NCBI GenBank assembly: GCA_025062195.1
Contig: JANXAS010000012.1
Location: 3,237-67,236 of the forward strand
From: Armatimonadota bacterium
GTDB lineage: Bacteria > Armatimonadota > Fervidibacteria > Fervidibacterales > Thermosaccharophagaceae
Length of the DNA: 64,000 nt
Direction: 5' to 3'
The notes beneath the pieces are model-generated. The model was not told the origin of the DNA and did not search any database. It saw only the letters and a program-made list of their open reading frames with translations. How positions within the stretch are numbered: the first letter of the stretch is position 1; each line of letters opens with the position of its first letter. Shown piece after piece: positions 7,200-26,989 of this stretch. Position numbers and translations under genes: made by a program.

Positions 7200-8470
7200 A
7201 GCACCAAAAAACTCCTGAGCAAAGAGCTGAAGCGCTGACAGATAATCAGTTTCACTTTCTGCACTACCAAGTCAAGTTCAATGTTGAGTGCAAGGCTCTG
7301 AATTCAAAGTTCGCTTTTGAAGGTAAGGCTACCGCCAAGCTGAAAAATGAGTGCGGGGTGCAAAGCACAAAGCTCGTTTTCTTGGGGCGAGGCTACTGCT
7401 GAGCCGAAAATGGTCACAAGACGCAAAGTTAAAAGCTCTACCATTTCAAGAAATCAAAGTAACGCGACCGCCTTTTGAATCACAAAACAAAAACTCTCAT
7501 TATGTAGCATCGTCCCTTGTGGGCAACGAAATTTAAATGACCGTCTCGGACAACCCTTGATGCTACATAGGTTGGATGTCACCTTGACTTTTGATGGTAT
7601 TCATTTCCGCAGGGTAAGGCTGCTGCCGAGCCGAAAATTTGCATGCCATATAGTGGCAGGAAAAGCCTGTCCGAAAATTCGGCAAGCCAGTTGGCTTGCC
7701 CTAAGAAATGGGAAAAATCACGACGGGAAATTCTTAGGGTGAGGCTGCTGCCGAGCCAAAAATTGAGAAGGTCAGAAAATGGGCAAGTTGGCGGATCGGA
7801 AGATAGGCAATGAATGATTCACAGCGCCTTTTGCTACAAACTTTTTTAGTGCTTGATTATCCATGCCACTGGCTTTAGCCATTGGTTGATGACGGGAATT
7901 CATTATTCATTCGGCGAGAATTTTCCTCGCCGTTTAAAGACGACGCTCAGAGAATTCGTCAGCTACTATGGGCTAAAGCCCATAGCATAGTTTGAAGAAG
8001 CGTTCACCAAAAACATTTGAGGCAAAGGGCAAACGAAAAAATTCAGACGCTCTTTACCACGAGCTTTGTTGCTTAGGTTTGTAGTTAGCCACGAAGCGAT
8101 AGCAAAGTGGCGTCAAAAATCCGTTTAAGTTCTTGGTCAGCCACCAAGCAAAGCGCGTCATAAGTTGTTCCTTGTTCCTTGTTCCGTTTTTTGACGGCAC
8201 TCCGCTTTGCTCCGTGCCTTATACAGCCTAATGGGAGGGCGAGGTTCCCGCCGAGCTAAAATTTTTCAGCAAAGAAAAAATTCGTAAGGGAAGGCTACTG
8301 CCCTGCCGAAAAATCAAAACGAAAAATTGGCAAGCCAATAGGCTTGCCCTACGAGGACAAAACGAAAATTCTCGGCATGCCAATGATGTGCCATCCAAGA
8401 GGACGGAAAATCGGAGGGCGATGTTGCCGCCGAGATCAAAATCAGGAAGGTCAACTGGCACATAGTTTTG
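7200..8470. repeat. Cluster of dispersed short intergenic repeat modules (mosaic of GC-rich hairpin motifs)
   Basis: There are multiple imperfect copies of motifs such as GGGCGAGGCTACTGCTGAGCCGAAAA, AGGGTAAGGCTGCTGCCGAGCCGAAAA, GGGAGGGCGAGGTTCCCGCCGAGCTAAAA, GGCAAGCCA(nn)TGGCTTGCC, CCATGCCACTGGCTTTAGCCATTGG and TATGGGCTAAAGCCCATAGC. Spacing and orientation are irregular. Confidence 0.85.
7825..8228 (+). repeat. Composite ~400-nt repeat element, copy 1
   Basis: It aligns by eye along its whole length with 20225-20625. The shared order is CCATGCCACTGGCTTTAGCCATTGGTTGATGACG, GAATTCATTCGGCGA, GAGAATTCGTCA, GGCTAAAGCCCATAGCA, GCGTTCACCAAAAACATTTGAGGCAAAGGGCAAACGAAAAAA, CTCTTTACCACGAGCTTTGTTGCTTAGGTT, GTAGTTAGCCACGAAGCGATAGC, TTGACGGCAC, GTGCCTTA. 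Confidence 0.85.
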
Positions 8471-8570
8471 TCTTTACATCTACAAGCTGGTGCACTAAAC
8501 TTGCTTAAGTTAGGCACTGCCTTAGCCAAGAGCATAAACAAGAGACAAGATTTGAAAGGATGAACAAGCT

Positions 8571-10376
8571 ATGGCACTAAAAGTTGAGATTGGTAAACCT
8601 GCAGAGTTTAGCAGTTGGGATGAACGATCCCTCTCGGATGAGGAAGTGGAGCAGTTTTTGACTTCACAGCGAATTTTTGAATGGCATATACCTAACCCTA
8701 TTGCTGCGGAATGCCGTATCCCATCAAACGAGGCACACCTGTTGTTACTTATGGCTGAACAACTTCGCTGCATGCAATCCTTTGAAGAATTACAGTGCTG
8801 GAACCAAGTGCGCATTTCCCGCTTCCCACACCAGATTGAAACAGCTTTGAAAGTGTTGAACGAGATGAATGGGTGTGCCTTACTCGCTGATGATGTTGGA
8901 TTGGGCAAAACAATTGAAGCAGGCTTGGTGATGAAAGAACTCATTGTTAGAGGGCTTGTTAAAAGCGTGCTCATATTGGTGCCAGCATCGCTAACTCATC
9001 AGTGGTGTCACGAGATGTTTGAGAAGTTTGGGGAGAGGTTCTTTATAGCCAGCCGGGAAAACGACTGGCTATCTTATGAGCGCATAATAGGTTCAATTGA
9101 CTTGGCAAAGCGTGAACCACACAGAAGCGCCATACTTAGACGCCAGTTTGACCTGCTCATTGTTGATGAAGCCCACAAATTAAGGAACAGGCTGACCCTT
9201 GCTCATCGCTTTTGCCAAAAGATACAAAAGCGCTATGTCCTGCTCCTAACTGCTACTCCGATCCAAAACAATTTATTTGAACTTTACAACCTTGTGACCC
9301 TGATAAAGCCTGGGCAACTTGGAACATTGCGAAATTTCAAAAGGAGATATGTCCTATCCGATGACCCGAAAAAGCCAAAGAATGTCGGGGAGTTGCGTCG
9401 GTTGCTCTCATCGGTAATGATAAGACATCACAGAGATGAAGTTGGAATAACCCTCCCACCAAGATATGTGACGACGCATTACATCTTGCTTACACCTCCA
9501 GAGTTTCGCCTTTATGAGGAGATGACGATGTTCTTAAGACAGAGCTACAAGCGATTTTGCGGGGCATCCGGTAAGGAAAGACACATGCGATTGACGCTAA
9601 TATTGCTCCAAAAAGAGCTCTGTAGCACGCCTCAAGCAGTAGCAGGAACATTGCTTAAGATGGCGGGAGACGATTACCCTGGCGAATTAAGGGAAAAGAT
9701 AGCCGAATTTTTCGAGCTCGCAAGGACAATACCATTGTGCGCAAAAATTGAGCACATTAAACAACTTTTGAGCGCACTCGGTGAGAAGGTGCTCATATTT
9801 ACAGATTACATTGCCAGCATGAAAGCGATAAAAAGAGCGCTTGAAGAGCATGGACATGAAGTCGTCCTATATCACGGTGGCATGAGCGAAAAGGCTAAAG
9901 ATAGGGCTATTGAAAGGTTTAAGGAGAGTGCTGGGGTGATGATAAGCACAGAGTCGGGTGCTGAGGGACGAAATCTGCAGTTCTGTAGGGTGGTGATTAA
10001 CTTTGATCTGCCTTGGAATCCCATGCGTCTTGAGCAGCGCATTGGGCGTGTCCATAGGTTAGGACAAGATAAACCTGTGTTTGTTATAAATTTGGCGACA
10101 GAGCAAACTGTTGAGGAACACATAATTGAGGTTTTGATAACAAAGATAGGGTTGTTTGAGTTAACCGTTGGCGAACTTGAGTTAATGCTCGGTATATCAC
10201 ACCTTGAAGAGGGCATTGAACGGCTCGTTGCAGAGGCAATTATGCAAAGCGAAACACCTGAAGAGGAAAAGGAACGCCTAAGACAAGTTGGAAAACTGCT
10301 GCAACGAGCTGTGGAACGCTACGAGCGAGTGAGACAGGCAAACCAAATGTTCTGGGAACTCATAAAACAGCACTGA
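8571..10376 (+). CDS. SNF2-family (Swi2/Snf2, RapA/Rad54-like) DEAD/H-box ATPase
   Basis: Motif I is LLADDVGLGKTIEAG, motif II is LLIVDEAHKLRN and motif III is LLLTATPIQNNLFELYNL. The C-terminal helicase lobe has STESGAEGRNLQ, NFDLPWNPMRLEQRIGRVHRLGQ. The protein is compact (601 aa) and has no obvious accessory domain. Confidence 0.9.
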   Translation: MALKVEIGKPAEFSSWDERSLSDEEVEQFLTSQRIFEWHIPNPIAAECRIPSNEAHLLLLMAEQLRCMQSFEELQCWNQVRISRFPHQIETALKVLNEMNGCALLADDVGLGKTIEAGLVMKELIVRGLVKSVLILVPASLTHQWCHEMFEKFGERFFIASRENDWLSYERIIGSIDLAKREPHRSAILRRQFDLLIVDEAHKLRNRLTLAHRFCQKIQKRYVLLLTATPIQNNLFELYNLVTLIKPGQLGTLRNFKRRYVLSDDPKKPKNVGELRRLLSSVMIRHHRDEVGITLPPRYVTTHYILLTPPEFRLYEEMTMFLRQSYKRFCGASGKERHMRLTLILLQKELCSTPQAVAGTLLKMAGDDYPGELREKIAEFFELARTIPLCAKIEHIKQLLSALGEKVLIFTDYIASMKAIKRALEEHGHEVVLYHGGMSEKAKDRAIERFKESAGVMISTESGAEGRNLQFCRVVINFDLPWNPMRLEQRIGRVHRLGQDKPVFVINLATEQTVEEHIIEVLITKIGLFELTVGELELMLGISHLEEGIERLVAEAIMQSETPEEEKERLRQVGKLLQRAVERYERVRQANQMFWELIKQH

Positions 10377-10489
10377 GTAACAGTTTGTGTATTTGCAGTC
10401 AGTCTGTAAGTGGCGCTAAACTTCGGTGGTTTAGGAGAGCCACGCTTCAGTTTAAAGTCACCTACTTTTAAGAGCGCAAAACCATTACG

Positions 10490-10637
10490 CTCTTTACTAC
10501 AAACTTGTTGGTCAGGCTCGCAGTTAGCCAAGAAGTGAAGTGTCGTTAAGTTGGTGCAAAGTGCGATGTTATCATTTTACTTGCACTTCACATTCACTTT
10601 GACGGCACCACATTTTGCTTGGTGCCTTACTGCGAAC
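10490..10637 (+). repeat. Intergenic repeat element (module A, subfamily 2) between the SNF2 gene and the Cys-rich gene
   Basis: The run CTCTTTACTACAAACTTGTTGG, GCAGTTAGCCAAGAAG, GGTGCAAAGTGCGATGTTATCATTTTACTTGCACTT, TTGACGGCACC, GGTGCCTTACTGCGAACC is collinear with 12953-13107 and 16174-16285. Confidence 0.85.
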
Positions 10638-10689
10638 CAACAAACTTTTGAGTAAAGAACGAACCATTGTATGGTGGGGAGTTAACGCG

Positions 10690-12597
10690 ATGCAATGGCA
10701 GCAAAGCTTTAGCATGTCATTTGGGAGTATAAAATCTGATGCCGTTGAAACATGGCTTCGCTCACTATGTTGTAGGTTCTTTGAATCCATTGGTGCCAAG
10801 GTGGACAAAAAAGGTAAATTGCTGCACATCAAATTACCTGAGGATTCACCGTTTGAATGGGATGGTAGCGAACTTATTGTTGGATTTGAAAAAGATGCCT
10901 GTGAAGCTGTTCAAGGCGCTTTGCTATTCACCCCCGGCAGCTTGCTGTTTCATCGCGTTCATGAATGGTTAAGAGAGCATGCATTGCACATTGCTGTTAA
11001 CTTGCCCGAGATTAAAAAGCCATCGGAACCTAAACTGCGTTTTGGAAATTGTGATTTGGTTTCAGTCAGAAGAAGGAAGGTCTGTCTGCGCGGTTTGCTT
11101 GTAAGCGTCGCGCTATCATGCATGCCGGCGTTTGAAAAGGCGATACTTAAGAAGTTCATGGTGCTTGAGAACGGCTTTGTTGCAGAAGTTACCGAGAAAG
11201 TGGACAGCATTCTCTCCGATGCTGAGCCCACTAAACCTTTATTCAGCCGCTCACTTTTCAGCAAACTTTTTGGATTGCTCACCGAGAAGTGTGAGAGCTT
11301 GCTTTCGGATTGGCTTTCGGAGCTGACTCAGATTGCAAAAGAGCGCTCAAAAGCTGAGCTTAAAAGAATAATCAACTACTACTCCAGCCTGCTCGGGGAA
11401 TTAGCCATCAAAGCAAGCAACAACAGCCAATTTCGGCATGAGATGGAGAAGTTAATTGCTGAGCGAGATGAGAGGCTAAGAGAGGAGTTACAAAGATATC
11501 AGCCCTTTGTCTCGGCTCAAGTTGTTGGCATCGCTGAGGTGAACATACCAGCAATTGAATTTAGGTTTACAGTCTCAAATGACTCGCTTCAACTATCGTT
11601 TCCCACTTATTGCAACCTTTATGATGGCACTTTCATGTTCGTAGCGTGTGCCAATTGTGGCTCTCAAACAAGTTATGTAAATCTTTGCACAAGTGGACAC
11701 ATAGCATGTAACGATTGCATTTTGAGTTGTTCAACCTGCGGCACGGAATACTGTAAAAGTTGCATCCGTAATTTTTGCGAACTTTGTAATTTACCTGTCT
11801 GTGACGAGTGCCTTTTAAATTGCGGGCTTTGCCACAGGAATGTTTGTAAGATACACAACATTGAATGTGAATTCTGTCGGAAAAAAGTTTGCAAAATATG
11901 CTCAATTGAATGCCACATATGTGGAAAGGGAGCCTGTTTTGATCACTCCATAAGTTGTGCTATCTGCAGCAGAGGAATCTGTAACGATTGCTTGCAACGG
12001 GGCATTAAAGAGATGCAAAAGTGCTTTGATTGCGGAGGGGTCATCTGCAATGACCATGCAATTTTGTGTTCAACTTGTGGGCGGGTAACTTGCACAAAAT
12101 GCAGAGCTGTTTGTTCAACTTGTGGTGGGATTATTTGCACAATGCACGCTTTTAAAGCCAATTGTTGTTCAATTATTCTGTGTAATAATCACTCCGTCAA
12201 TTGTCAATCATGCGGGAAAATAGCTTGTTTAGAACACATCGCGCAATGTGGTATTTGTGGCTCAATTGTCTGCCGCCTATGCAGCAACAGATGCATAATT
12301 TGTGAACAATACTACTGCGTTTCATGTTTGGGTAGAAAAACTGTGTGCAATTTGTGTATAAGGTTGCTTAATTCACCGGAGCGAAAATTGCCATCTTCTC
12401 TACTACCGCATCCGATGCCAAAACAGATTTTAAAGACAAGAAGTTGCCGATTTGTAGCCACAAAGTGTAGGTCGGTTTACCTATGGCGTGATGGATTGGA
12501 TGGATTACTTGTTGTTGCTGATGCTTCTGGAAAAATAATCTTCGCAAAACATCTTAACGCATTATGGCTTCTTCGCCATCTGAAGAAGTGGGGCTAA
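10690..12597 (+). CDS. Hypothetical protein: ~320-aa N-terminal domain with a coiled-coil segment, a ~237-aa tandem zinc-ribbon-like Cys array, and a ~75-aa C-terminal domain
   Basis: I moved the start to the ATG at 10690 (MQWQQSF...). A GGGGAG site precedes it, and the first 25 codons of the tracked ORF lie inside the repeat element. The Cys array is described under 11647-12357. I recognise no family. Confidence 0.75.
   Translation: MQWQQSFSMSFGSIKSDAVETWLRSLCCRFFESIGAKVDKKGKLLHIKLPEDSPFEWDGSELIVGFEKDACEAVQGALLFTPGSLLFHRVHEWLREHALHIAVNLPEIKKPSEPKLRFGNCDLVSVRRRKVCLRGLLVSVALSCMPAFEKAILKKFMVLENGFVAEVTEKVDSILSDAEPTKPLFSRSLFSKLFGLLTEKCESLLSDWLSELTQIAKERSKAELKRIINYYSSLLGELAIKASNNSQFRHEMEKLIAERDERLREELQRYQPFVSAQVVGIAEVNIPAIEFRFTVSNDSLQLSFPTYCNLYDGTFMFVACANCGSQTSYVNLCTSGHIACNDCILSCSTCGTEYCKSCIRNFCELCNLPVCDECLLNCGLCHRNVCKIHNIECEFCRKKVCKICSIECHICGKGACFDHSISCAICSRGICNDCLQRGIKEMQKCFDCGGVICNDHAILCSTCGRVTCTKCRAVCSTCGGIICTMHAFKANCCSIILCNNHSVNCQSCGKIACLEHIAQCGICGSIVCRLCSNRCIICEQYYCVSCLGRKTVCNLCIRLLNSPERKLPSSLLPHPMPKQILKTRSCRFVATKCRSVYLWRDGLDGLLVVADASGKIIFAKHLNALWLLRHLKKWG
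11647..12357 (+). repeat. In-frame tandem coding repeat: about 16 modules of ~14 aa (~42 nt) with the pattern C-x2-C-x4-C-x2-[C/H]-x3
   Basis: The translation reads CSTCGTEYCKSC IRNF CELCNLPVCDEC LLN CGLCHRNVCKIH NIE CEFCRKKVCKIC SIE CHICGKGACFDH SIS CAICSRGICNDC ... CGICGSIVCRLC SNR CIICEQYYCVSC. I counted 53 Cys in 237 residues, with His replacing the fourth ligand in six modules. Confidence 0.9.
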
Positions 12598-13400: not shown

Positions 13401-13703
13401 TTACAATGGCACAACGCTGGCTATAGAATCGCCCTCCTCAAGCACTAATAAGCGAGAACCCTTTGCGGTGCGCGATGCCGTTTTAATTTCCTCTAATTGC
13501 AGCCTAACTATGCGCCCTTGCGTTGTTGCAACAACAATCTCACCGCTCTCACCGACTGGCAATGCTGCAAGAAGTGCATCGCCCTCGGCGAGATTAACAC
13601 CAGAGACACCTTTTGCAGGGCGCTTTCGCACCCGCACCTCATCAATAGGCACTCGCTTTGCATACCCATTCTTTGTGACGACGAGCACATATTTCGCCTC
13701 CAT
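13401..13703 (-). CDS. Stand-alone DNA gyrase subunit A C-terminal repeat (beta-pinwheel blade) protein, two blades, 100 aa
   Basis: VVTKNGYAKRVPIDEVRVRKRPAKGVSGVNL and VATTQGRIVRLQLEEIKTASRTAKGSRLL match the GyrA/ParC C-terminal blade consensus (tkxGyiKRxxxxefrxqxRggkGv). A strong GGGGAGGTG Shine-Dalgarno site lies 6 nt upstream of the ATG, and a terminator lies downstream. Confidence 0.75.
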   Translation of the reverse strand: MEAKYVLVVTKNGYAKRVPIDEVRVRKRPAKGVSGVNLAEGDALLAALPVGESGEIVVATTQGRIVRLQLEEIKTASRTAKGSRLLVLEEGDSIASVVPL

Positions 13704-13832
13704 AGCTCACACCTCCCCTTTGATTTTATTTTTGCACGCAAGCATAGGCTTGCGTTTCCACATTCTATTTTAGCAACAAACTTGCGACTTGGAAAACTGC
13801 TAATATCTAATGAACACCGGCAAACAGAATCC

Positions 13833-20694: not shown

Positions 20695-22272
20695 TCATTT
20701 GGTGCATGACTCAATCAAGCGCACAAGCTCACGGTAAAGTAAACATGCAGCATTCGGACCGAGCGACATTATTTCTCCGTAGTGGCGCTCACCGTATGTG
20801 TATGGTGGATGAGCATCCCACTGCGTCTTAGGGATGAAATAACCAAGTTCGTCGTTAGCCAACCCAACAATCACAGAGAACTTCGTTGGCATGAACTTAA
20901 GTAACGGTGGGCTTTCACAAATCTCACCGGCATAGTCAGCGCCGTCTGGCGATTCCACACCGCCAATTGCAACCTCAGGATATAGCTCACCCGGTATGCA
21001 AAGCATACCAATGTTTCCGATGCGAATAAAGGCAATCTCCGTTGGGACGACACCACGAAAAACAAAATAGCCATGCTTGACCACACCAATGTGCGCTCCA
21101 ATCCTGAGAAGCCAATTTTCAATTGGCAGCGTTATCGTCCTCGCACAGACTTCAACTTGCGTTTCATTTACAAGCTCAGCTTTGCGCGCAAGCTCAAGCA
21201 CAACCATACCGATATTCTCGCCGAGCGCCCTCGCCTTCTCCACACCATTCTCGCGGATGAAGCGCCCATCAAGTGAGCGCACACTAACCCCCGTTGGACT
21301 CATCAAACCGCCAATTGCGCCGTTGATATAGATCGCGATCCCTCCAAGCCCATCAACAAAGCCGCGATTTGGTGAGCGAATACCATCCTCAACGGCACAG
21401 CGCACCCAGTGCACAAAATCAGAGGTGACCATAGTGTTCCTTGAGCCGAATGCCTCGGGATGATTTGCCCACTGGATGATGGTGCACACTGTTTTGGATG
21501 TGGTTGCATCAAAGAAGCGAATCACAATCAGCCTATCATCAACAACAAATGGCGGGCGTGAATCACCGATCAACCCGTCAATGCCAGTTTTGGCTTGCGC
21601 AACAGAAAGCCTGCACCTGCGCATGTTTGAGACAGCCTCTATAAGCACCTTGGCTGTCAGCCACTTCACCATATCCATGTAGCTTGCATCCACACCGCAT
21701 GAAAATCTGTATCGTCCCCACAACCCGAGTGTATCTGGTGAGTTGTGGTTATGAGTGCATGTCACAACGATGTAATCAAATCCCGCACCCCTGCGCTCAG
21801 CTTCATCCCGTATGTCAATAACATCGTCGTAAAACAAACCGATTAGGTCAAGAGCTACTATGCCAATTCGGTGAACACCGTTATCAATAGCAACAGCCCT
21901 TGCCCAAAGTTGGTCATGCACTCTTGATGCTGGACGGGAGTTGTGAAAACCAGCAAGCCAAATCCTTGTCCCACTCAGCTTATCTCCATCCAAAGGCTCA
22001 TATCGTCCATCGCTATCTTTGTCAATAAAGCTTGCGCACACAGATGGCGTTATTGCTGCCTTTGATGCCCCAACCATCCATATGCCATCACCATATTGTC
22101 CGTTTGATCGAATGCGCAATTCAAGCTTATATCGGATGTGCCTCGGATATGCGTTTAACAAAAGAGAGATAACGATGGTTGAGATGAGGATGGTGAGAAC
22201 AATGAGCCACAATTTCAACTTGCGAAGGAACATACCGTCCACCACCGAAAGCTCCTTCAAATGATGCGTCAT
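20695..22272 (-). CDS. Neutral/alkaline ceramidase-like hydrolase with an N-terminal membrane anchor
   Basis: AAITPSV..., the aligned block IVALDLIGLFYDDV and VVTCTHNHNSPD resemble the N-terminal catalytic domain of non-lysosomal ceramidase-family proteins. It is a paralog of 41095-42486. Confidence 0.6.
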   Translation of the reverse strand: MTHHLKELSVVDGMFLRKLKLWLIVLTILISTIVISLLLNAYPRHIRYKLELRIRSNGQYGDGIWMVGASKAAITPSVCASFIDKDSDGRYEPLDGDKLSGTRIWLAGFHNSRPASRVHDQLWARAVAIDNGVHRIGIVALDLIGLFYDDVIDIRDEAERRGAGFDYIVVTCTHNHNSPDTLGLWGRYRFSCGVDASYMDMVKWLTAKVLIEAVSNMRRCRLSVAQAKTGIDGLIGDSRPPFVVDDRLIVIRFFDATTSKTVCTIIQWANHPEAFGSRNTMVTSDFVHWVRCAVEDGIRSPNRGFVDGLGGIAIYINGAIGGLMSPTGVSVRSLDGRFIRENGVEKARALGENIGMVVLELARKAELVNETQVEVCARTITLPIENWLLRIGAHIGVVKHGYFVFRGVVPTEIAFIRIGNIGMLCIPGELYPEVAIGGVESPDGADYAGEICESPPLLKFMPTKFSVIVGLANDELGYFIPKTQWDAHPPYTYGERHYGEIMSLGPNAACLLYRELVRLIESCTK

Positions 22273-23108: not shown

Positions 23109-23209
23109 CACCCCCCAAATGATGCATTCAGTCCGGCAACTCACACCGAAAGCGATGATACCACATGTGTTCGTCCCGTGATAGCATTCGGAACAGAGGT
23201 GAGCATAGC

Positions 23210-26200
23210 ATGCGCATAGGTGATTTGATAGAGCTAAAGAGTGTGCCAACGGTAATTCAACTTGAGGGTGTCTCACATGCTGTGGGCGCCGAATTTGAGG
23301 GGACAAGCCAAAGAGCATTAAGGGAGCTTGTCTCAACATACCTTATCATTCGTGGTGCAAATGAGGCTGCGCTTGAAAGCATACTCACGACCATGACCAA
23401 AGAGACGGGTTGCGCACACATGCTCAGCGGGGCATATGGCACTGGGAAAAGCCATATGCTTGCTCTTATCGGTTTGCTCTGCCAATTTCAGTGGGCGAGA
23501 GAGCTGTTTGCAAGCTCGCACGAGCGCTACAGCAAATTGATGGATGAGCTTGCAAAGCGCAAGTGGTTAGTCACATTCACCAGCTTAGATGCGTATTCGC
23601 CAACGGCGCCACTTGAACAAATCATTTGGGATGAAACTGTGGCTTCGCTTAAGCGAACCCATCCACATGCGGTGGGACAGAAGCTACCAAGTGAGATGCC
23701 GTCGTCTCGCGCAGAGGCACTTACAATGCTGCAAAGCGCCGCGAATGCTCTCGGCTATGATTGCACCCTGTGGGTCATTGACGAACTATCAATGTTCCTT
23801 GGAGCGAAGGGGCACAGGGAATTGCAAGCTGATGCATCATTTCTGCAGTTCATCGCACAGCACTGCCAACGCTCCAGAGCTTGGCTCATTGTAGCCATAC
23901 AGAAGACGATTGAAGAGCTTGGCGAACTTGAACCATACTCACTGACACAAATCAAGGACAGATATGTGCGCCATACACTCTCATTCGCTCACGCTCGCCA
24001 GCTCATACGAAAGAATCTGCTACCGCCAAAGGATGGGCGACAGTTTGCGCAGGTCATGCTCCAATGGCATCGCAAGCTACTTGAGTCCTTCCCAATGATT
24101 GACTTCAGCGCCGAGGAGTTGATAGCTTGCTACCCGCTGCACCCGTTCACGCTCGCTTGCCTTGAGAGGGCTACCGGGCGTTTCTTTTCAAGGACTCGCT
24201 CCATCGTTGACTTTGTCCAAAAACAGGCACAGGAGTTGGTTGACTGTGATGCCTTTCAACTCATCACGCCAGACGCAATCTACGAGCACTTTTACGCCGA
24301 CATTATCTCGCACCCAGAGCTGCATCCATATGCCGACGAAGTCATCCCATATCTTGATGAAAGGGTGAGCGAACTCTTTCCGGAGCGCCAAAAGGCTATG
24401 AGAAAACTTGCAAGGGCGCTTGTGGTATTCAAGATGGCCGGCATAGATGCATCTGTAAGGAAGCTTGCTCACACATTCCTTTGGGACTTGGGTTTGGGTG
24501 CGGAGATGAATTACAGCTATATGCTGTCGTTGCTGGAGACGCTCCGCACAAACGCGAACTACATTGACTGTGTTAGGCGTGAGGAGGATTACGGCGATAC
24601 ATACTCCATTGATTTAGGCGCAACCGTCACTGAGATGTTGCAACGGCGCTTGCAGGCTTTGATTGAGACCTTTTCCGATGAGGACATCAGAGTGGTTGAG
24701 TATGCACTGAGAACAATGTCCACATCTCACCTACCCGTCCCGCAAATTGGCACCGGGCACACATTCACCACTCAGTGGCAAAACGCTTCGTTCAGTCTTA
24801 TGCTGCAATGTGTTGACCTGAGAGAACTCACCAAAGACTGGATGCTTAACTTGCAGAACTACATTGCCTCACCATCGTGCGCCTACGATGTCCATGCGCT
24901 TATAGCGCCGCCAATCGCAGCTGATGAGCAAATGAAGAGCGCAATTGAGCTGCTGTATTCGCTTGAGGAGAATAGGTTCAGATATGCCATACCTATCCTC
25001 ATACCGAGGGCTGTTGGTAGGGGTGAAATGATGCGCCTCATGGAGAATGCAGCAGCATCAATCCTTGCAAGCGACCCATCCCTCAAGGACAGCGACATCG
25101 GCGTTGCTATTTACAAGCGCCTGCGCGAGGAAGAAAACGCAAGGGCGAGCGAGACACAGCGCATACTGAGAAATGCATATTTGAATGGCACATTGCTCAT
25201 AGGCGGAAAGAAGCTGCCCATCTCGGCGCTTATACCAACTGAGGCATCAATTAGCGATGTGTTCACAGCAATCGCTGGCGCATCTATTCCCAAGGTCTTC
25301 CCGCAATTTTCATCCGTAGCGCCGCGCTCGCCAGTTCGTCCATCGGATGAGCACAGAAAACTTGTCAACGCGATTTTGGCTGGCGAGGGAATTCAAAAGT
25401 TAAGCGCTGACCTAAGAGAGCTATGGCGATGCATTGCTATTCCGCTTGGAATAACGGCACAACTGCTTGATGGCACTGCACCATGCGATGGTGCTGCGAG
25501 GCTTATAAGCGAGCTGATAGCCGGAGCAGATGTCCCAATCGCGTATGAGCAAATTATCTCAATGGCTCGCAAGAGCGAATATGGATTGCGTGAGGAGCAA
25601 TGCGAGTTGCTCATTGCAGCATTGTTAAAGCGCGGCGAAGCCTTGGCACACGACCGATATGGCGCAACGCTATCATTACAGCGGCTCAGCTCACCGCTGC
25701 GAAGGTGCGTTGCGACATTGAGCACAGCACCGCTCATTGAGAGAGAAACCTGGGAAGAAGCGATTTTGTATGCGGATGGACTTTCCATACTGCCATCCGA
25801 GCTTGAGATGAAATTTCATCCAGCAGTGCAACAGATGCTCTGGCAGAGCATCGTCTCGTGGAAGGAACACGCATCCGGAATTTGCGAACAAGCCCACAGG
25901 GAACTGCTCTCGCTTATGACACAGCTGCAGCACAGCAATGCACTGTGGTCTCACTCGCTCAACGCCATCGGCACTGTCGGAGTTGCCATCAGCGCTGTAG
26001 CTGCCGAGGCAATAGCTCATGAAGGTCTTAAGGGATGGGTTGCAACGCTGGAAGTTAATGGCATAAGTTGGGAGGAACTCAAATCGGCATGGAGCAGATG
26101 CACTCAACTTCATGATGCGTTAGTGGCACACGGAGAGAAGCTGCGAAAGATACACGCTTGGCTGACCGATGTGAGCCTGAGGCTCAGCGGCGATGCGAAG

Positions 26201-26989
26201 GCGTTGGCACAACAACTCCTTGAGGCACTTGACGGTGGCGAGTCCATCCTTGGTGAGCTTGATTGGTTCGTCTCATCTTGGGAAAGACTGCTAAGCAGCT
26301 ACATAAGCGATTACTTGAGGCATCATGAGAACGAACATAGCGTCTCACGCTTTGAGCCATACATCAAAATTAGACGCCACAGCGCATTCAGGCTGCTTAA
26401 CCGAATGGCACAATTGCGCTTGCCGATGAGGGAAGCAATTGAAGCGATGAGAACAGTTAGCGCCGAGCTGTCAAAGCAATGTGCCATAACAAAGGAACAA
26501 CTCGCACGCCAGCTTTACAGCTCGCCAATATGCCAGAGTTGTAAATTGATGCTCGGAGAACACATTCCGCTTGTTCCCCCGGAGGAGATAACAAGCACCC
26601 TTGAAGAGATGGCTAAGGAATGCAAGGGGCGTTTTCTCTCACACGATGTCAGGGGCAAGATTAGTTCATTCATGGAACGCCTCCCAGCATCCACCACTAA
26701 GCAGCGTTTGGAACGCCTGCTTAACTTGAGCATAAGTGATAGCCACGATGTCTGGCTTGAAGCGCTCAGCGACGATGTGATCGAATGCATTAACACGGCA
26801 TTGTCACCGACACCGACCGCTATAAGGAGTTTGCAATCGCTGTGTGAAAGGCTTGTTGGAAGCGAGGTGACTAAGGCACAAGCTGTAAGGGTGTTTTTAA
26901 ATTGGCTTGACGAGCCAACGCAACTGAAGCCGTTTGATGTTGTCCGCTTCATAAGAGGCGAAGATGCGAGTCAACAAAACAACCGGTGA
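23210..26989 (+). CDS. Large (~1260 aa) P-loop NTPase, BrxC/PglY/DUF6079-like
   Basis: Walker A is LSGAYGTGKSHMLA and Walker B-like is CTLWVIDELSMFL. The N-terminus is MRIGDLIELKSVPTVIQLE. The remainder is long and mostly helical. An AGAGGTGAG Shine-Dalgarno site precedes the ATG at 23210. The family assignment is from recollection of the GxxGxGKSH signature. Confidence 0.7.
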   Translation: MRIGDLIELKSVPTVIQLEGVSHAVGAEFEGTSQRALRELVSTYLIIRGANEAALESILTTMTKETGCAHMLSGAYGTGKSHMLALIGLLCQFQWARELFASSHERYSKLMDELAKRKWLVTFTSLDAYSPTAPLEQIIWDETVASLKRTHPHAVGQKLPSEMPSSRAEALTMLQSAANALGYDCTLWVIDELSMFLGAKGHRELQADASFLQFIAQHCQRSRAWLIVAIQKTIEELGELEPYSLTQIKDRYVRHTLSFAHARQLIRKNLLPPKDGRQFAQVMLQWHRKLLESFPMIDFSAEELIACYPLHPFTLACLERATGRFFSRTRSIVDFVQKQAQELVDCDAFQLITPDAIYEHFYADIISHPELHPYADEVIPYLDERVSELFPERQKAMRKLARALVVFKMAGIDASVRKLAHTFLWDLGLGAEMNYSYMLSLLETLRTNANYIDCVRREEDYGDTYSIDLGATVTEMLQRRLQALIETFSDEDIRVVEYALRTMSTSHLPVPQIGTGHTFTTQWQNASFSLMLQCVDLRELTKDWMLNLQNYIASPSCAYDVHALIAPPIAADEQMKSAIELLYSLEENRFRYAIPILIPRAVGRGEMMRLMENAAASILASDPSLKDSDIGVAIYKRLREEENARASETQRILRNAYLNGTLLIGGKKLPISALIPTEASISDVFTAIAGASIPKVFPQFSSVAPRSPVRPSDEHRKLVNAILAGEGIQKLSADLRELWRCIAIPLGITAQLLDGTAPCDGAARLISELIAGADVPIAYEQIISMARKSEYGLREEQCELLIAALLKRGEALAHDRYGATLSLQRLSSPLRRCVATLSTAPLIERETWEEAILYADGLSILPSELEMKFHPAVQQMLWQSIVSWKEHASGICEQAHRELLSLMTQLQHSNALWSHSLNAIGTVGVAISAVAAEAIAHEGLKGWVATLEVNGISWEELKSAWSRCTQLHDALVAHGEKLRKIHAWLTDVSLRLSGDAKALAQQLLEALDGGESILGELDWFVSSWERLLSSYISDYLRHHENEHSVSRFEPYIKIRRHSAFRLLNRMAQLRLPMREAIEAMRTVSAELSKQCAITKEQLARQLYSSPICQSCKLMLGEHIPLVPPEEITSTLEEMAKECKGRFLSHDVRGKISSFMERLPASTTKQRLERLLNLSISDSHDVWLEALSDDVIECINTALSPTPTAIRSLQSLCERLVGSEVTKAQAVRVFLNWLDEPTQLKPFDVVRFIRGEDASQQNNR

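Follow-up and report, generated by a model that had tools for sequence, protein, structure and literature searches.

The window analysed here is a 64,000-nucleotide stretch of DNA from an Armatimonadota bacterium of the family Thermosaccharophagaceae, order Fervidibacterales (GenBank assembly GCA_025062195.1, contig JANXAS010000012.1, positions 3,237 to 67,236 of the forward strand). On its + strand it carries a gene (23210..26989) that is a genuine full-length relative of BrxC, an ORC/Cdc6-type AAA+ ATPase of the BrxC/PglY (DUF6079) family known from bacteriophage exclusion (BREX) defence systems. The protein belongs to no BREX system; together with its orthologues it forms a monophyletic branch that is confined to Armatimonadota and is inherited vertically as a single-copy chromosomal gene. 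In our assessment, there is a probability of about 0.6 that this solitary branch of BrxC consists of ATP-gated, self-assembling, DNA-binding ATPases without a nuclease, whose role is more cellular than that of a mobile defence gene.

Family membership and domain architecture

The N-terminal part of the protein (residues 1–416) matches Pfam family PF19557 (DUF6079, renamed BrxC-PglY_N in newer Pfam releases) with 103.9 bits against a cut-off of 23 (E = 6e-30), and BrxC is the best PADLOC model (3.9e-21). PADLOC models of SspC give a weaker match (residues 45–336, E = 2.5e-12). With 54.1 bits against a threshold of 400 for BrxC (NF033441) and 24.5 bits against 1700 for PglY (NF047891), the protein scores below both NCBIfam equivalog thresholds; it is a member of the BrxC/PglY family and an equivalog of neither BREX protein. 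A phmmer search of the single protein against PDB sequences returned no match. Since single-sequence searches cover only the ATPase third of the protein, we compared a profile of 26 family members (A1) with one of 22 canonical DUF6079 proteins (A2), whose operons, of type 3 BREX, also encode an N6_N4 methyltransferase, an SNF2 helicase and PglZ. The hhalign comparison (probability 100, E = 2.4e-47, 17% identity over 1,151 aligned columns) runs from end to end, placing columns 5–1252 of the family onto columns 3–1237 of type 3 BrxC. The family profile also matches the solved BrxC structures 9zdx and 9zn5 at about 1e-9 and aligns K80, D191-E192 and R251 to K78, D268-E269 and R330 of Acinetobacter BrxC, while its C-terminal arm yields weak matches to Rad50 coiled coils and designed helical bundles.

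The coding sequence specifies 1,259 amino acids plus the stop codon, a protein of 141 kDa that is acidic overall (isoelectric point 5.9). Although the open frame extends further 5' on the + strand (23165–26989), the ATG at 23210 is the likely start, as a Shine-Dalgarno-like AGAGGTGA (23195..23202) is located 7 nt upstream and alignments of orthologues begin there. The Walker A motif GAYGTGKSH (residues 74–82, including K80; 23429..23455) and the Walker B motif LWVIDELS (residues 187–194, including D191-E192; 23768..23791) were read directly in the sequence. R251 in the motif QIKDRY (23960..23962), by virtue of its alignment to R330 of Acinetobacter BrxC, is predicted to be a trans-acting arginine finger. 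In an alignment of 51 family members, D191 is kept throughout, position 192 is occupied by glutamate in 39 sequences and by aspartate in 12, and R251 is present in 41, being lost only in an Armatimonadia/Zipacnadia subclade; K80 was found in 50 of 50 aligned members. Also invariant in the same alignment are three cysteines in the apex loop of the coiled coil, C1091 and C1108-x2-C1111 (26480..26542), along with Y1031, Y1035 and H1039. The cysteine triad is probably a zinc site, which may be completed by H1039.

The AlphaFold2 model of residues 1–1200, built on the 51-sequence alignment, is confident (pLDDT, the predicted local distance difference test, 89.5; pTM, the predicted template modelling score, 0.57). 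Its top Foldseek matches in PDB are BrxC 9zll and 9zdx, the solved N-terminal half of the Acinetobacter protein (E = 6.5e-10, template modelling score 0.56–0.61 on the target), followed by ORC/Cdc6 proteins. An N-terminal segment and the ORC/Cdc6-type AAA+ core and lid, recognized from Pfam, AlphaFold2 and Foldseek, occupy residues 1–345 (23210..24244), with the strands of the AAA+ domain modelled at residues 69–73, 119–125, 185–191, 224–230 and 252–256. They are succeeded by a first winged-helix region (residues 346–471; 24245..24622), delimited by the secondary structure of the model, and by an alpha+beta domain with a long helical pair (residues 472–700; 24623..25309), for which the model shows strands at 516–534, 561–565, 596–598 and 661–670 and helices at 604–658, and which is collinear with type 3 BrxC in the profile alignment. 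A second winged-helix region (residues 701–844; 25310..25741) aligns weakly to Acinetobacter BrxC from residue 786 onward. The remainder of the protein is a helical coiled-coil arm (residues 845–1259; 25742..26986), whose long helices (871–906, 954–985 and 1010–1042) lead to a loop-rich apex. This layout, with borders that are our own reading and a C-terminal part that has no solved counterpart, agrees with the order described for BrxC, namely AAA+, winged helix, alpha+beta, winged helix, and a coiled coil with a distal subdomain (PMC12839542).

An earlier note on this DNA, produced by a model from the sequence alone, had picked out the same giant open reading frame (ORF) of about 1260 residues with both Walker motifs near the N-terminus, and had likened that N-terminus to DUF6079, BrxC and PglY. 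All of this holds, and the structure prediction that it proposed as a check yields a BrxC-type architecture. Of its description of the rest as about 1000 mostly helical residues, the helical coiled coil stands, but two winged-helix regions and a six-strand alpha+beta domain precede it. The note had also considered placement in a non-defence family, whereas the profile searches put the protein in the BrxC/PglY family.

Absence of BREX partners and a sister clade of fusions

To survey the locus, every ORF of at least 150 amino acids between 2 and 49 kb of the window was scanned against Pfam. Within 20 kb of the gene, the survey turned up no gene for a methyltransferase, PglZ, Lon, kinase, integrase or other mobile-element protein, and no PAPS (3'-phosphoadenosine 5'-phosphosulfate) reductase, as in type 4 BREX, is encoded in the scanned region. 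Genes for BrxA, BrxB/BrxF, BrxL, BrxHI/HII and PglW do not adjoin the gene. The genome, which is 97% complete, contains one DUF6079 gene and no match to the PglZ family PF08665. A second PglZ profile (A4), built from the BrxC-PglZ fusion relatives described below, recognizes canonical PglZ in a pair of type 3 BREX loci (E = 4e-13 and 5e-10); it retrieves nothing from the genome at E<=1 and has no match in the window or in any Armatimonadota locus with its flanks. Among 30 other genomes that carry the gene, none matches PF08665, and the A4 profile gives only two marginal matches of 26–35 residues in unrelated ORFs. All-against-all clustering of neighbouring ORFs, performed for 26 loci and then for 54 loci with 8-kb flanks, revealed no family present in more than eight loci and none spanning clades.

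The gene is flanked upstream by a divergent gene for an AP_endonuc_2 TIM-barrel protein and downstream, after 206 bp from its stop codon, by a convergent ABC-2 permease gene, followed by genes for two M16 peptidases and aconitase. Its G+C content matches that of its surroundings. A scan for sigma-70 promoters showed no site near the gene; terminator-like sites are absent from its strand, and the other strand has three, a lower number than shuffled sequence gives. The earlier description of the locus was therefore accurate in its neighbours (a divergent sugar-phosphate isomerase, here the TIM-barrel gene, and a convergent ABC-2 permease) and in its lack of PglX, PglZ, BrxL and kinase genes within 20 kb. 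The view of the protein as an orphan ATPase in a housekeeping context can now be extended to the genome and, through the lack of PglZ in other carrier genomes, to the family; the comparison of homologous neighbourhoods that the note had called for shows no conserved neighbour. The remainder of a BREX system lying elsewhere, the case that the note had set against itself, finds no trace in the form of a PglZ gene in the genome.

One candidate partner was considered and rejected. The SNF2 gene at 8571–10376, located 13 kb upstream and syntenic only within the genus, could not be accepted as BrxHII because its BrxH matches are as generic as those to DrmD, ZorD and DpdE. Its 601-residue product is followed by a 660-residue protein without Pfam or PADLOC match (window 8571–12597; L001:1–2166; L003:2239–5935), and the pair is syntenic in two sister species. 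A ceramidase-like family with a weak Pfam match occurs near the BrxC-like gene in four loci, namely the window (20695–22272), L001, L035 and L046, where the gene at 7412–8695 overlaps the BrxC-like gene (8692–12285) by 4 bp. Its recurrence is inconsistent across loci and, because the family has paralogues in the genome, may be due to chance. The window further contains a 100-residue ORF (13401–13703) that consists solely of two blades of the GyrA C-terminal beta-propeller (DNA_gyraseA_C, E = 2.3e-28) and is kept in L001 and L003.

The nearest relatives outside the phylum were obtained in an exhaustive phmmer search with residues 1–1200 against 1.84 billion cluster representatives, which returned 551 matches (210 with E<=1e-30). 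Among the top 150, about 60 are proteins of 1,590–1,850 amino acids with 23–28% identity over residues 1–1200 and about 550 extra C-terminal residues that have no Pfam match. Toward its end, this extension contains the catalytic motifs of alkaline phosphatases (D-G-x-R-x-D, P-x-x-T, D-x3-H, D-H-G and H-G-G), which do not vary among 22 sequences. A profile of this region matches PorX in its PglZ domain (E about 1e-13) as well as the BREX PglZ structures 9nv3 (2e-7) and 9zn5 (1.6e-5). On the strength of this catalytic set and these profile matches, the long relatives are BrxC-PglZ fusions. They are annotated as 'DUF6079 family protein' and are found in Bacillota, Halanaerobiales, Eremiobacterota, Thermodesulfobacteriota and others. 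None of four distinct fusion loci contains a methyltransferase gene, and in three of them a gene for a TPR protein of about 340 amino acids lies directly upstream of the fusion gene or overlaps it. These three, L110 (8954–15388), L111 (7335–13680) and L115 (7010–13526), are two-gene units in housekeeping contexts with fusion proteins of 1,780–1,840 amino acids; the fourth locus, L113, has no TPR gene. In the literature searched, neither the fusions nor a solitary, vertically inherited branch of BrxC is described.

With canonical type 3 BrxC as the root, two trees both unite the solitary proteins with the fusions in a single clade (support 100). FastTree leaves a three-way split in which the 56 Armatimonadota representatives make up one PglZ-free clade, while IQ-TREE makes the Armatimonadota clade (support 100) the sister of all fusions (support 91). 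By these trees the PglZ-less state may be a loss or the older condition; the branch is PglZ-free either way. A second PglZ-less subclade, with proteins of about 1,310–1,390 amino acids (for example, from Poribacteria), is nested among the fusions. Its representative L114:8001–12173 has no PglZ gene within 8 kb and points to an independent PglZ-free lineage.

These data also bear on the idea of a dispersed system to which the protein contributes one component, with partners, BREX-like or other, encoded elsewhere in the genome. In BREX, BrxC serves as a scaffold for BrxB and PglZ (PMC13326643), fusions of the sister clade are often paired with a TPR protein of their own, and the genome does encode generic TPR proteins. 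Yet a profile of the TPR partner retrieves from it only generic partial TPR matches (E>=6e-10) and no full-length orthologue, PglZ is missing here and in the 30 other carriers, no neighbour is conserved across clades, and the synteny of the SNF2 helicase ends with the genus. We consider such an arrangement quite improbable.

Distribution, descent and probable role

A six-frame search of 301 Armatimonadota genomes detected the gene in 125 of them, representing 62 of 159 genera, almost always in a single copy. It is present in 21 of the 23 genomes of its own order, the two negatives being only 61–67% complete, in all 21 genomes of Abditibacteriaceae, and in all 18 Fervidibacter genomes that are at least 70% complete (the F. 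sacchari genome itself is outside this check). Scanning one genome from each GTDB species by motif produced 60 loci; the records among them that are named below domain level are all from Armatimonadota, except for two short contigs labelled Bacillota. The carriers include Thermosaccharophagus, Fervidibacter, Caldisaccharidevorator, Abditibacterium, Fimbriimonadaceae, Armatimonadia, Zipacnadia and Hebobacteria. The nearest relatives, from Candidatus Thermosaccharophagus species, have 72% and 56% identity and the same flanking genes, and identity declines with taxonomic distance, from 56–72% in the genus to 25–34% (mostly 31–34%) in the order and 23–31% in the phylum. In the maximum-likelihood tree, Abditibacteriia and the Fervidibacteria group are clades with support of 98–100, congruent with the classes. 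The earlier suggestion of an uncharacterised family thus takes the form of a phylum-wide vertical clade.

The gene is under purifying constraint comparable to that of its neighbours. Relative to the orthologue with 72% identity, the ratio of nonsynonymous to synonymous substitution rates (dN/dS) is 0.115, as compared with 0.07–0.13 in five neighbouring housekeeping genes, and the amino-acid identity is slightly below theirs. Across eight pairs (the window against L001 and seven from other lineages, six of the latter with unsaturated dS), dN/dS of the whole gene is 0.06–0.18 and every domain stays at or below 0.29. In BREX BrxC, the alpha+beta and second winged-helix modules reportedly evolve fast (PMC12839542); here they are as constrained as the ATPase. 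Taken together, the single copy, the taxonomy-like tree and the low dN/dS set the gene apart from decaying genes and from mobile defence genes alike. Among the readings offered in the earlier note, the remnant of a lost system would account for a BREX-family gene without BREX partners, but it is excluded by ORFs that are intact in almost all of more than 120 carrier genomes, dN/dS in the above range, invariant catalytic and structural residues and a confidently predicted fold.

Members of the Armatimonadia/Zipacnadia subclade have a remodelled ATP site. In these full-length, conserved proteins (L084, L085, L088, L089 and L091–L096), the DE of Walker B is changed to DD, the residues at the positions of R251 and R330 are replaced, and SRTRS has become xxADG. 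The ATP-site residues are kept in the clade of the window protein and in the Abditibacteriia, Fimbriimonadia and Hebobacteria-like sequences, so that the window protein, judged by its sequence, should still hydrolyse ATP.

In two genomes of the Fervidibacter group the gene borders a variable toxin-antitoxin cluster. ParE and Uma2 genes are inserted between the BrxC-like gene and a nadB-like gene in L004 (13758–16268) and L006 (13761–15469), and further PIN_3 genes are found just downstream of nadB in the same two loci. In L005 the BrxC-like and nadB-like genes adjoin (at 13763), which indicates a variable islet beside a stable gene. Both L004 (2092–4362) and L006 (3145–5439) also contain a GcpE (IspG) gene with a LAGLIDADG_3 domain between two GcpE_C matches, which suggests that the gene for this isoprenoid-pathway enzyme carries an intein.

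From the published behaviour of type 1 BrxC, we infer by analogy the following mode of action. ATP binding would let the AAA+ domains stack head to tail through the arginine finger acting in trans, and the stacked domains would form dimers and rings or spirals on DNA, which would be contacted by the winged-helix, alpha+beta and second winged-helix modules. The coiled-coil arms, presumably stapled by zinc, would project outward or pair, with the Cys3(+His) apex stapling or pairing them. The protein would thereby have kept the dimers, rings and DNA-stimulated oligomers of BrxC and have lost its binding to BrxB:PglZ. With no PglZ fused to it or present in the genome, its output should not be cleavage; it could be the ATP-gated occupancy, bridging or remodelling of DNA or the recruitment of an unrelated, unlinked factor. 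Such an activity might serve the upkeep of the chromosome or its replication or the surveillance of incoming DNA, and the inheritance pattern favours a cellular role over mobile defence.

Several observations weigh against this picture. The subclade that lacks the Walker B glutamate and the arginine finger implies that ATP hydrolysis is not essential to the common function; nucleotide-dependent assembly probably matters more to it than turnover does. By isoelectric point and charge per domain, none of the putative DNA-binding modules is basic, and DNA binding and oligomerisation are carried over from type 1 BrxC at a Foldseek identity of 12–14%. The gene is missing from more than half of the Armatimonadota genomes and is therefore not essential phylum-wide. 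The toxin-antitoxin cluster that it borders in the Fervidibacter group is typical of defence-gene neighbourhoods, and there may be an unlinked partner that has no homology to BREX proteins.

The protein could instead be, as in one reading of the earlier note, a stand-alone anti-phage or anti-plasmid factor that senses and binds invading DNA and blocks its replication, alone or through a host nuclease. Those relatives that have been characterised all act in defence, the PglZ domain fused to BrxC in the sister clade has its full catalytic set, and ParE, PIN and Uma2 genes adjoin the gene in the Fervidibacter loci. This explanation has to contend with an inheritance like that of a core gene in two lineages, a single copy, a tree that follows taxonomy and preserved housekeeping synteny. 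It likewise fits poorly with dN/dS that is low in every domain, including those that reportedly evolve fast in BREX, with the lack of an effector domain and of PglZ in the genome, and with surroundings that match the gene in G+C content and in which no integrase or other mobile-element gene was found over 20 kb. On balance, we regard it as rather unlikely.

A cellular role of the solitary ATPase could, more tentatively, be extended to the possibility that whole lineages of Armatimonadota have domesticated a BREX-type ORC/Cdc6-like ATPase and made it one of their core chromosomal proteins, where it might, with neither a nuclease nor DNA modification, form an ATP-gated ring or filament on DNA for replication control, chromosome organisation or foreign-DNA silencing. 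Condensin-like complexes exist in housekeeping and defence versions, and domestication of BrxC, if true, would parallel that pair. BREX is defined by two proteins, BrxC and PglZ. The long retention of BrxC with an intact ATP site, in lineages with no PglZ, methyltransferase or fixed partner, argues that the BrxC scaffold has a useful activity of its own, and the branch constitutes a natural experiment on BrxC acting alone. The branch also offers one more example for judging how frequently defence and cellular DNA machinery swap parts. Fervidibacter sacchari, of the sister family, is a cultured hyperthermophile (PMC11535203), and thermostable orthologues should suit biochemistry and cryo-electron microscopy.

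Comparison with known systems

Among the DNA-associated ATPases to which the protein might be compared, SMC/condensin-like proteins share with it solely a coiled coil with an apical cysteine cluster. Their ATPase is a split ABC-type head, whereas the window protein has a contiguous N-terminal AAA+ domain, for which reason membership of that group was rejected. The ORC/Cdc6 initiators belong to the same AAA+ clade and are the second-best structural matches; the similarity is limited to the N-terminal approximately 400 residues and is not seen at the sequence level, while the C-terminal part of about 850 residues is specific to BrxC. SspC, of the phosphorothioation-based Ssp defence, resembles the protein in the ATPase domain only and less closely than BrxC does, and the scanned region of the window encodes no protein with the Pfam matches expected of SspA, SspB or SspD, including those of cysteine desulfurase and PAPS-reductase-like proteins.

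The best structural match is type 1 BrxC of Acinetobacter (9zdx, 9zll, 9zn5; PMC13326643, Nucleic Acids Res 2026), which has counterparts of K80, D191-E192 and R251. This protein forms ATP-dependent back-to-face dimers through arginine fingers and occasional heptameric rings, binds DNA, and forms oligomers that are stimulated by DNA (PMC13326643). It differs in that identity is only 12–14% and its first finger residue, K326, aligns to Q247 in the window protein. Acinetobacter BrxC binds BrxB:PglZ via its AAA+ domain, whereas the genome of the window has no PglZ (BrxB was not searched for).

Type 3 BrxC is of the same size (about 1,230–1,260 amino acids), collinear over the 1,151 columns, and shares the G-x-Y-G-T/S-GKSH Walker A, the DE of Walker B, the (K/R)DRF motif, the Y-x3-Y-x3-H motif and the cysteine triad near the C-terminus. 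In contrast to the window protein, with which identity is 17%, it is encoded in an operon with PglXI, BrxHII and PglZ, none of which is found in the locus studied here, and it is patchily inherited, whereas the branch of the window protein is vertical. The BrxC-PglZ fusions, the nearest relatives outside the phylum, similarly occur in housekeeping surroundings without a methyltransferase. They possess an additional PglZ-type domain with all catalytic residues, whereas the window protein ends at residue 1259, and their genes are often preceded by a TPR gene in place of the divergent TIM-barrel gene of the window. The BREX core can thus be arranged in a graded series, from BrxC alone, through a BrxC-PglZ fusion that often has a TPR partner, to the full BREX system.

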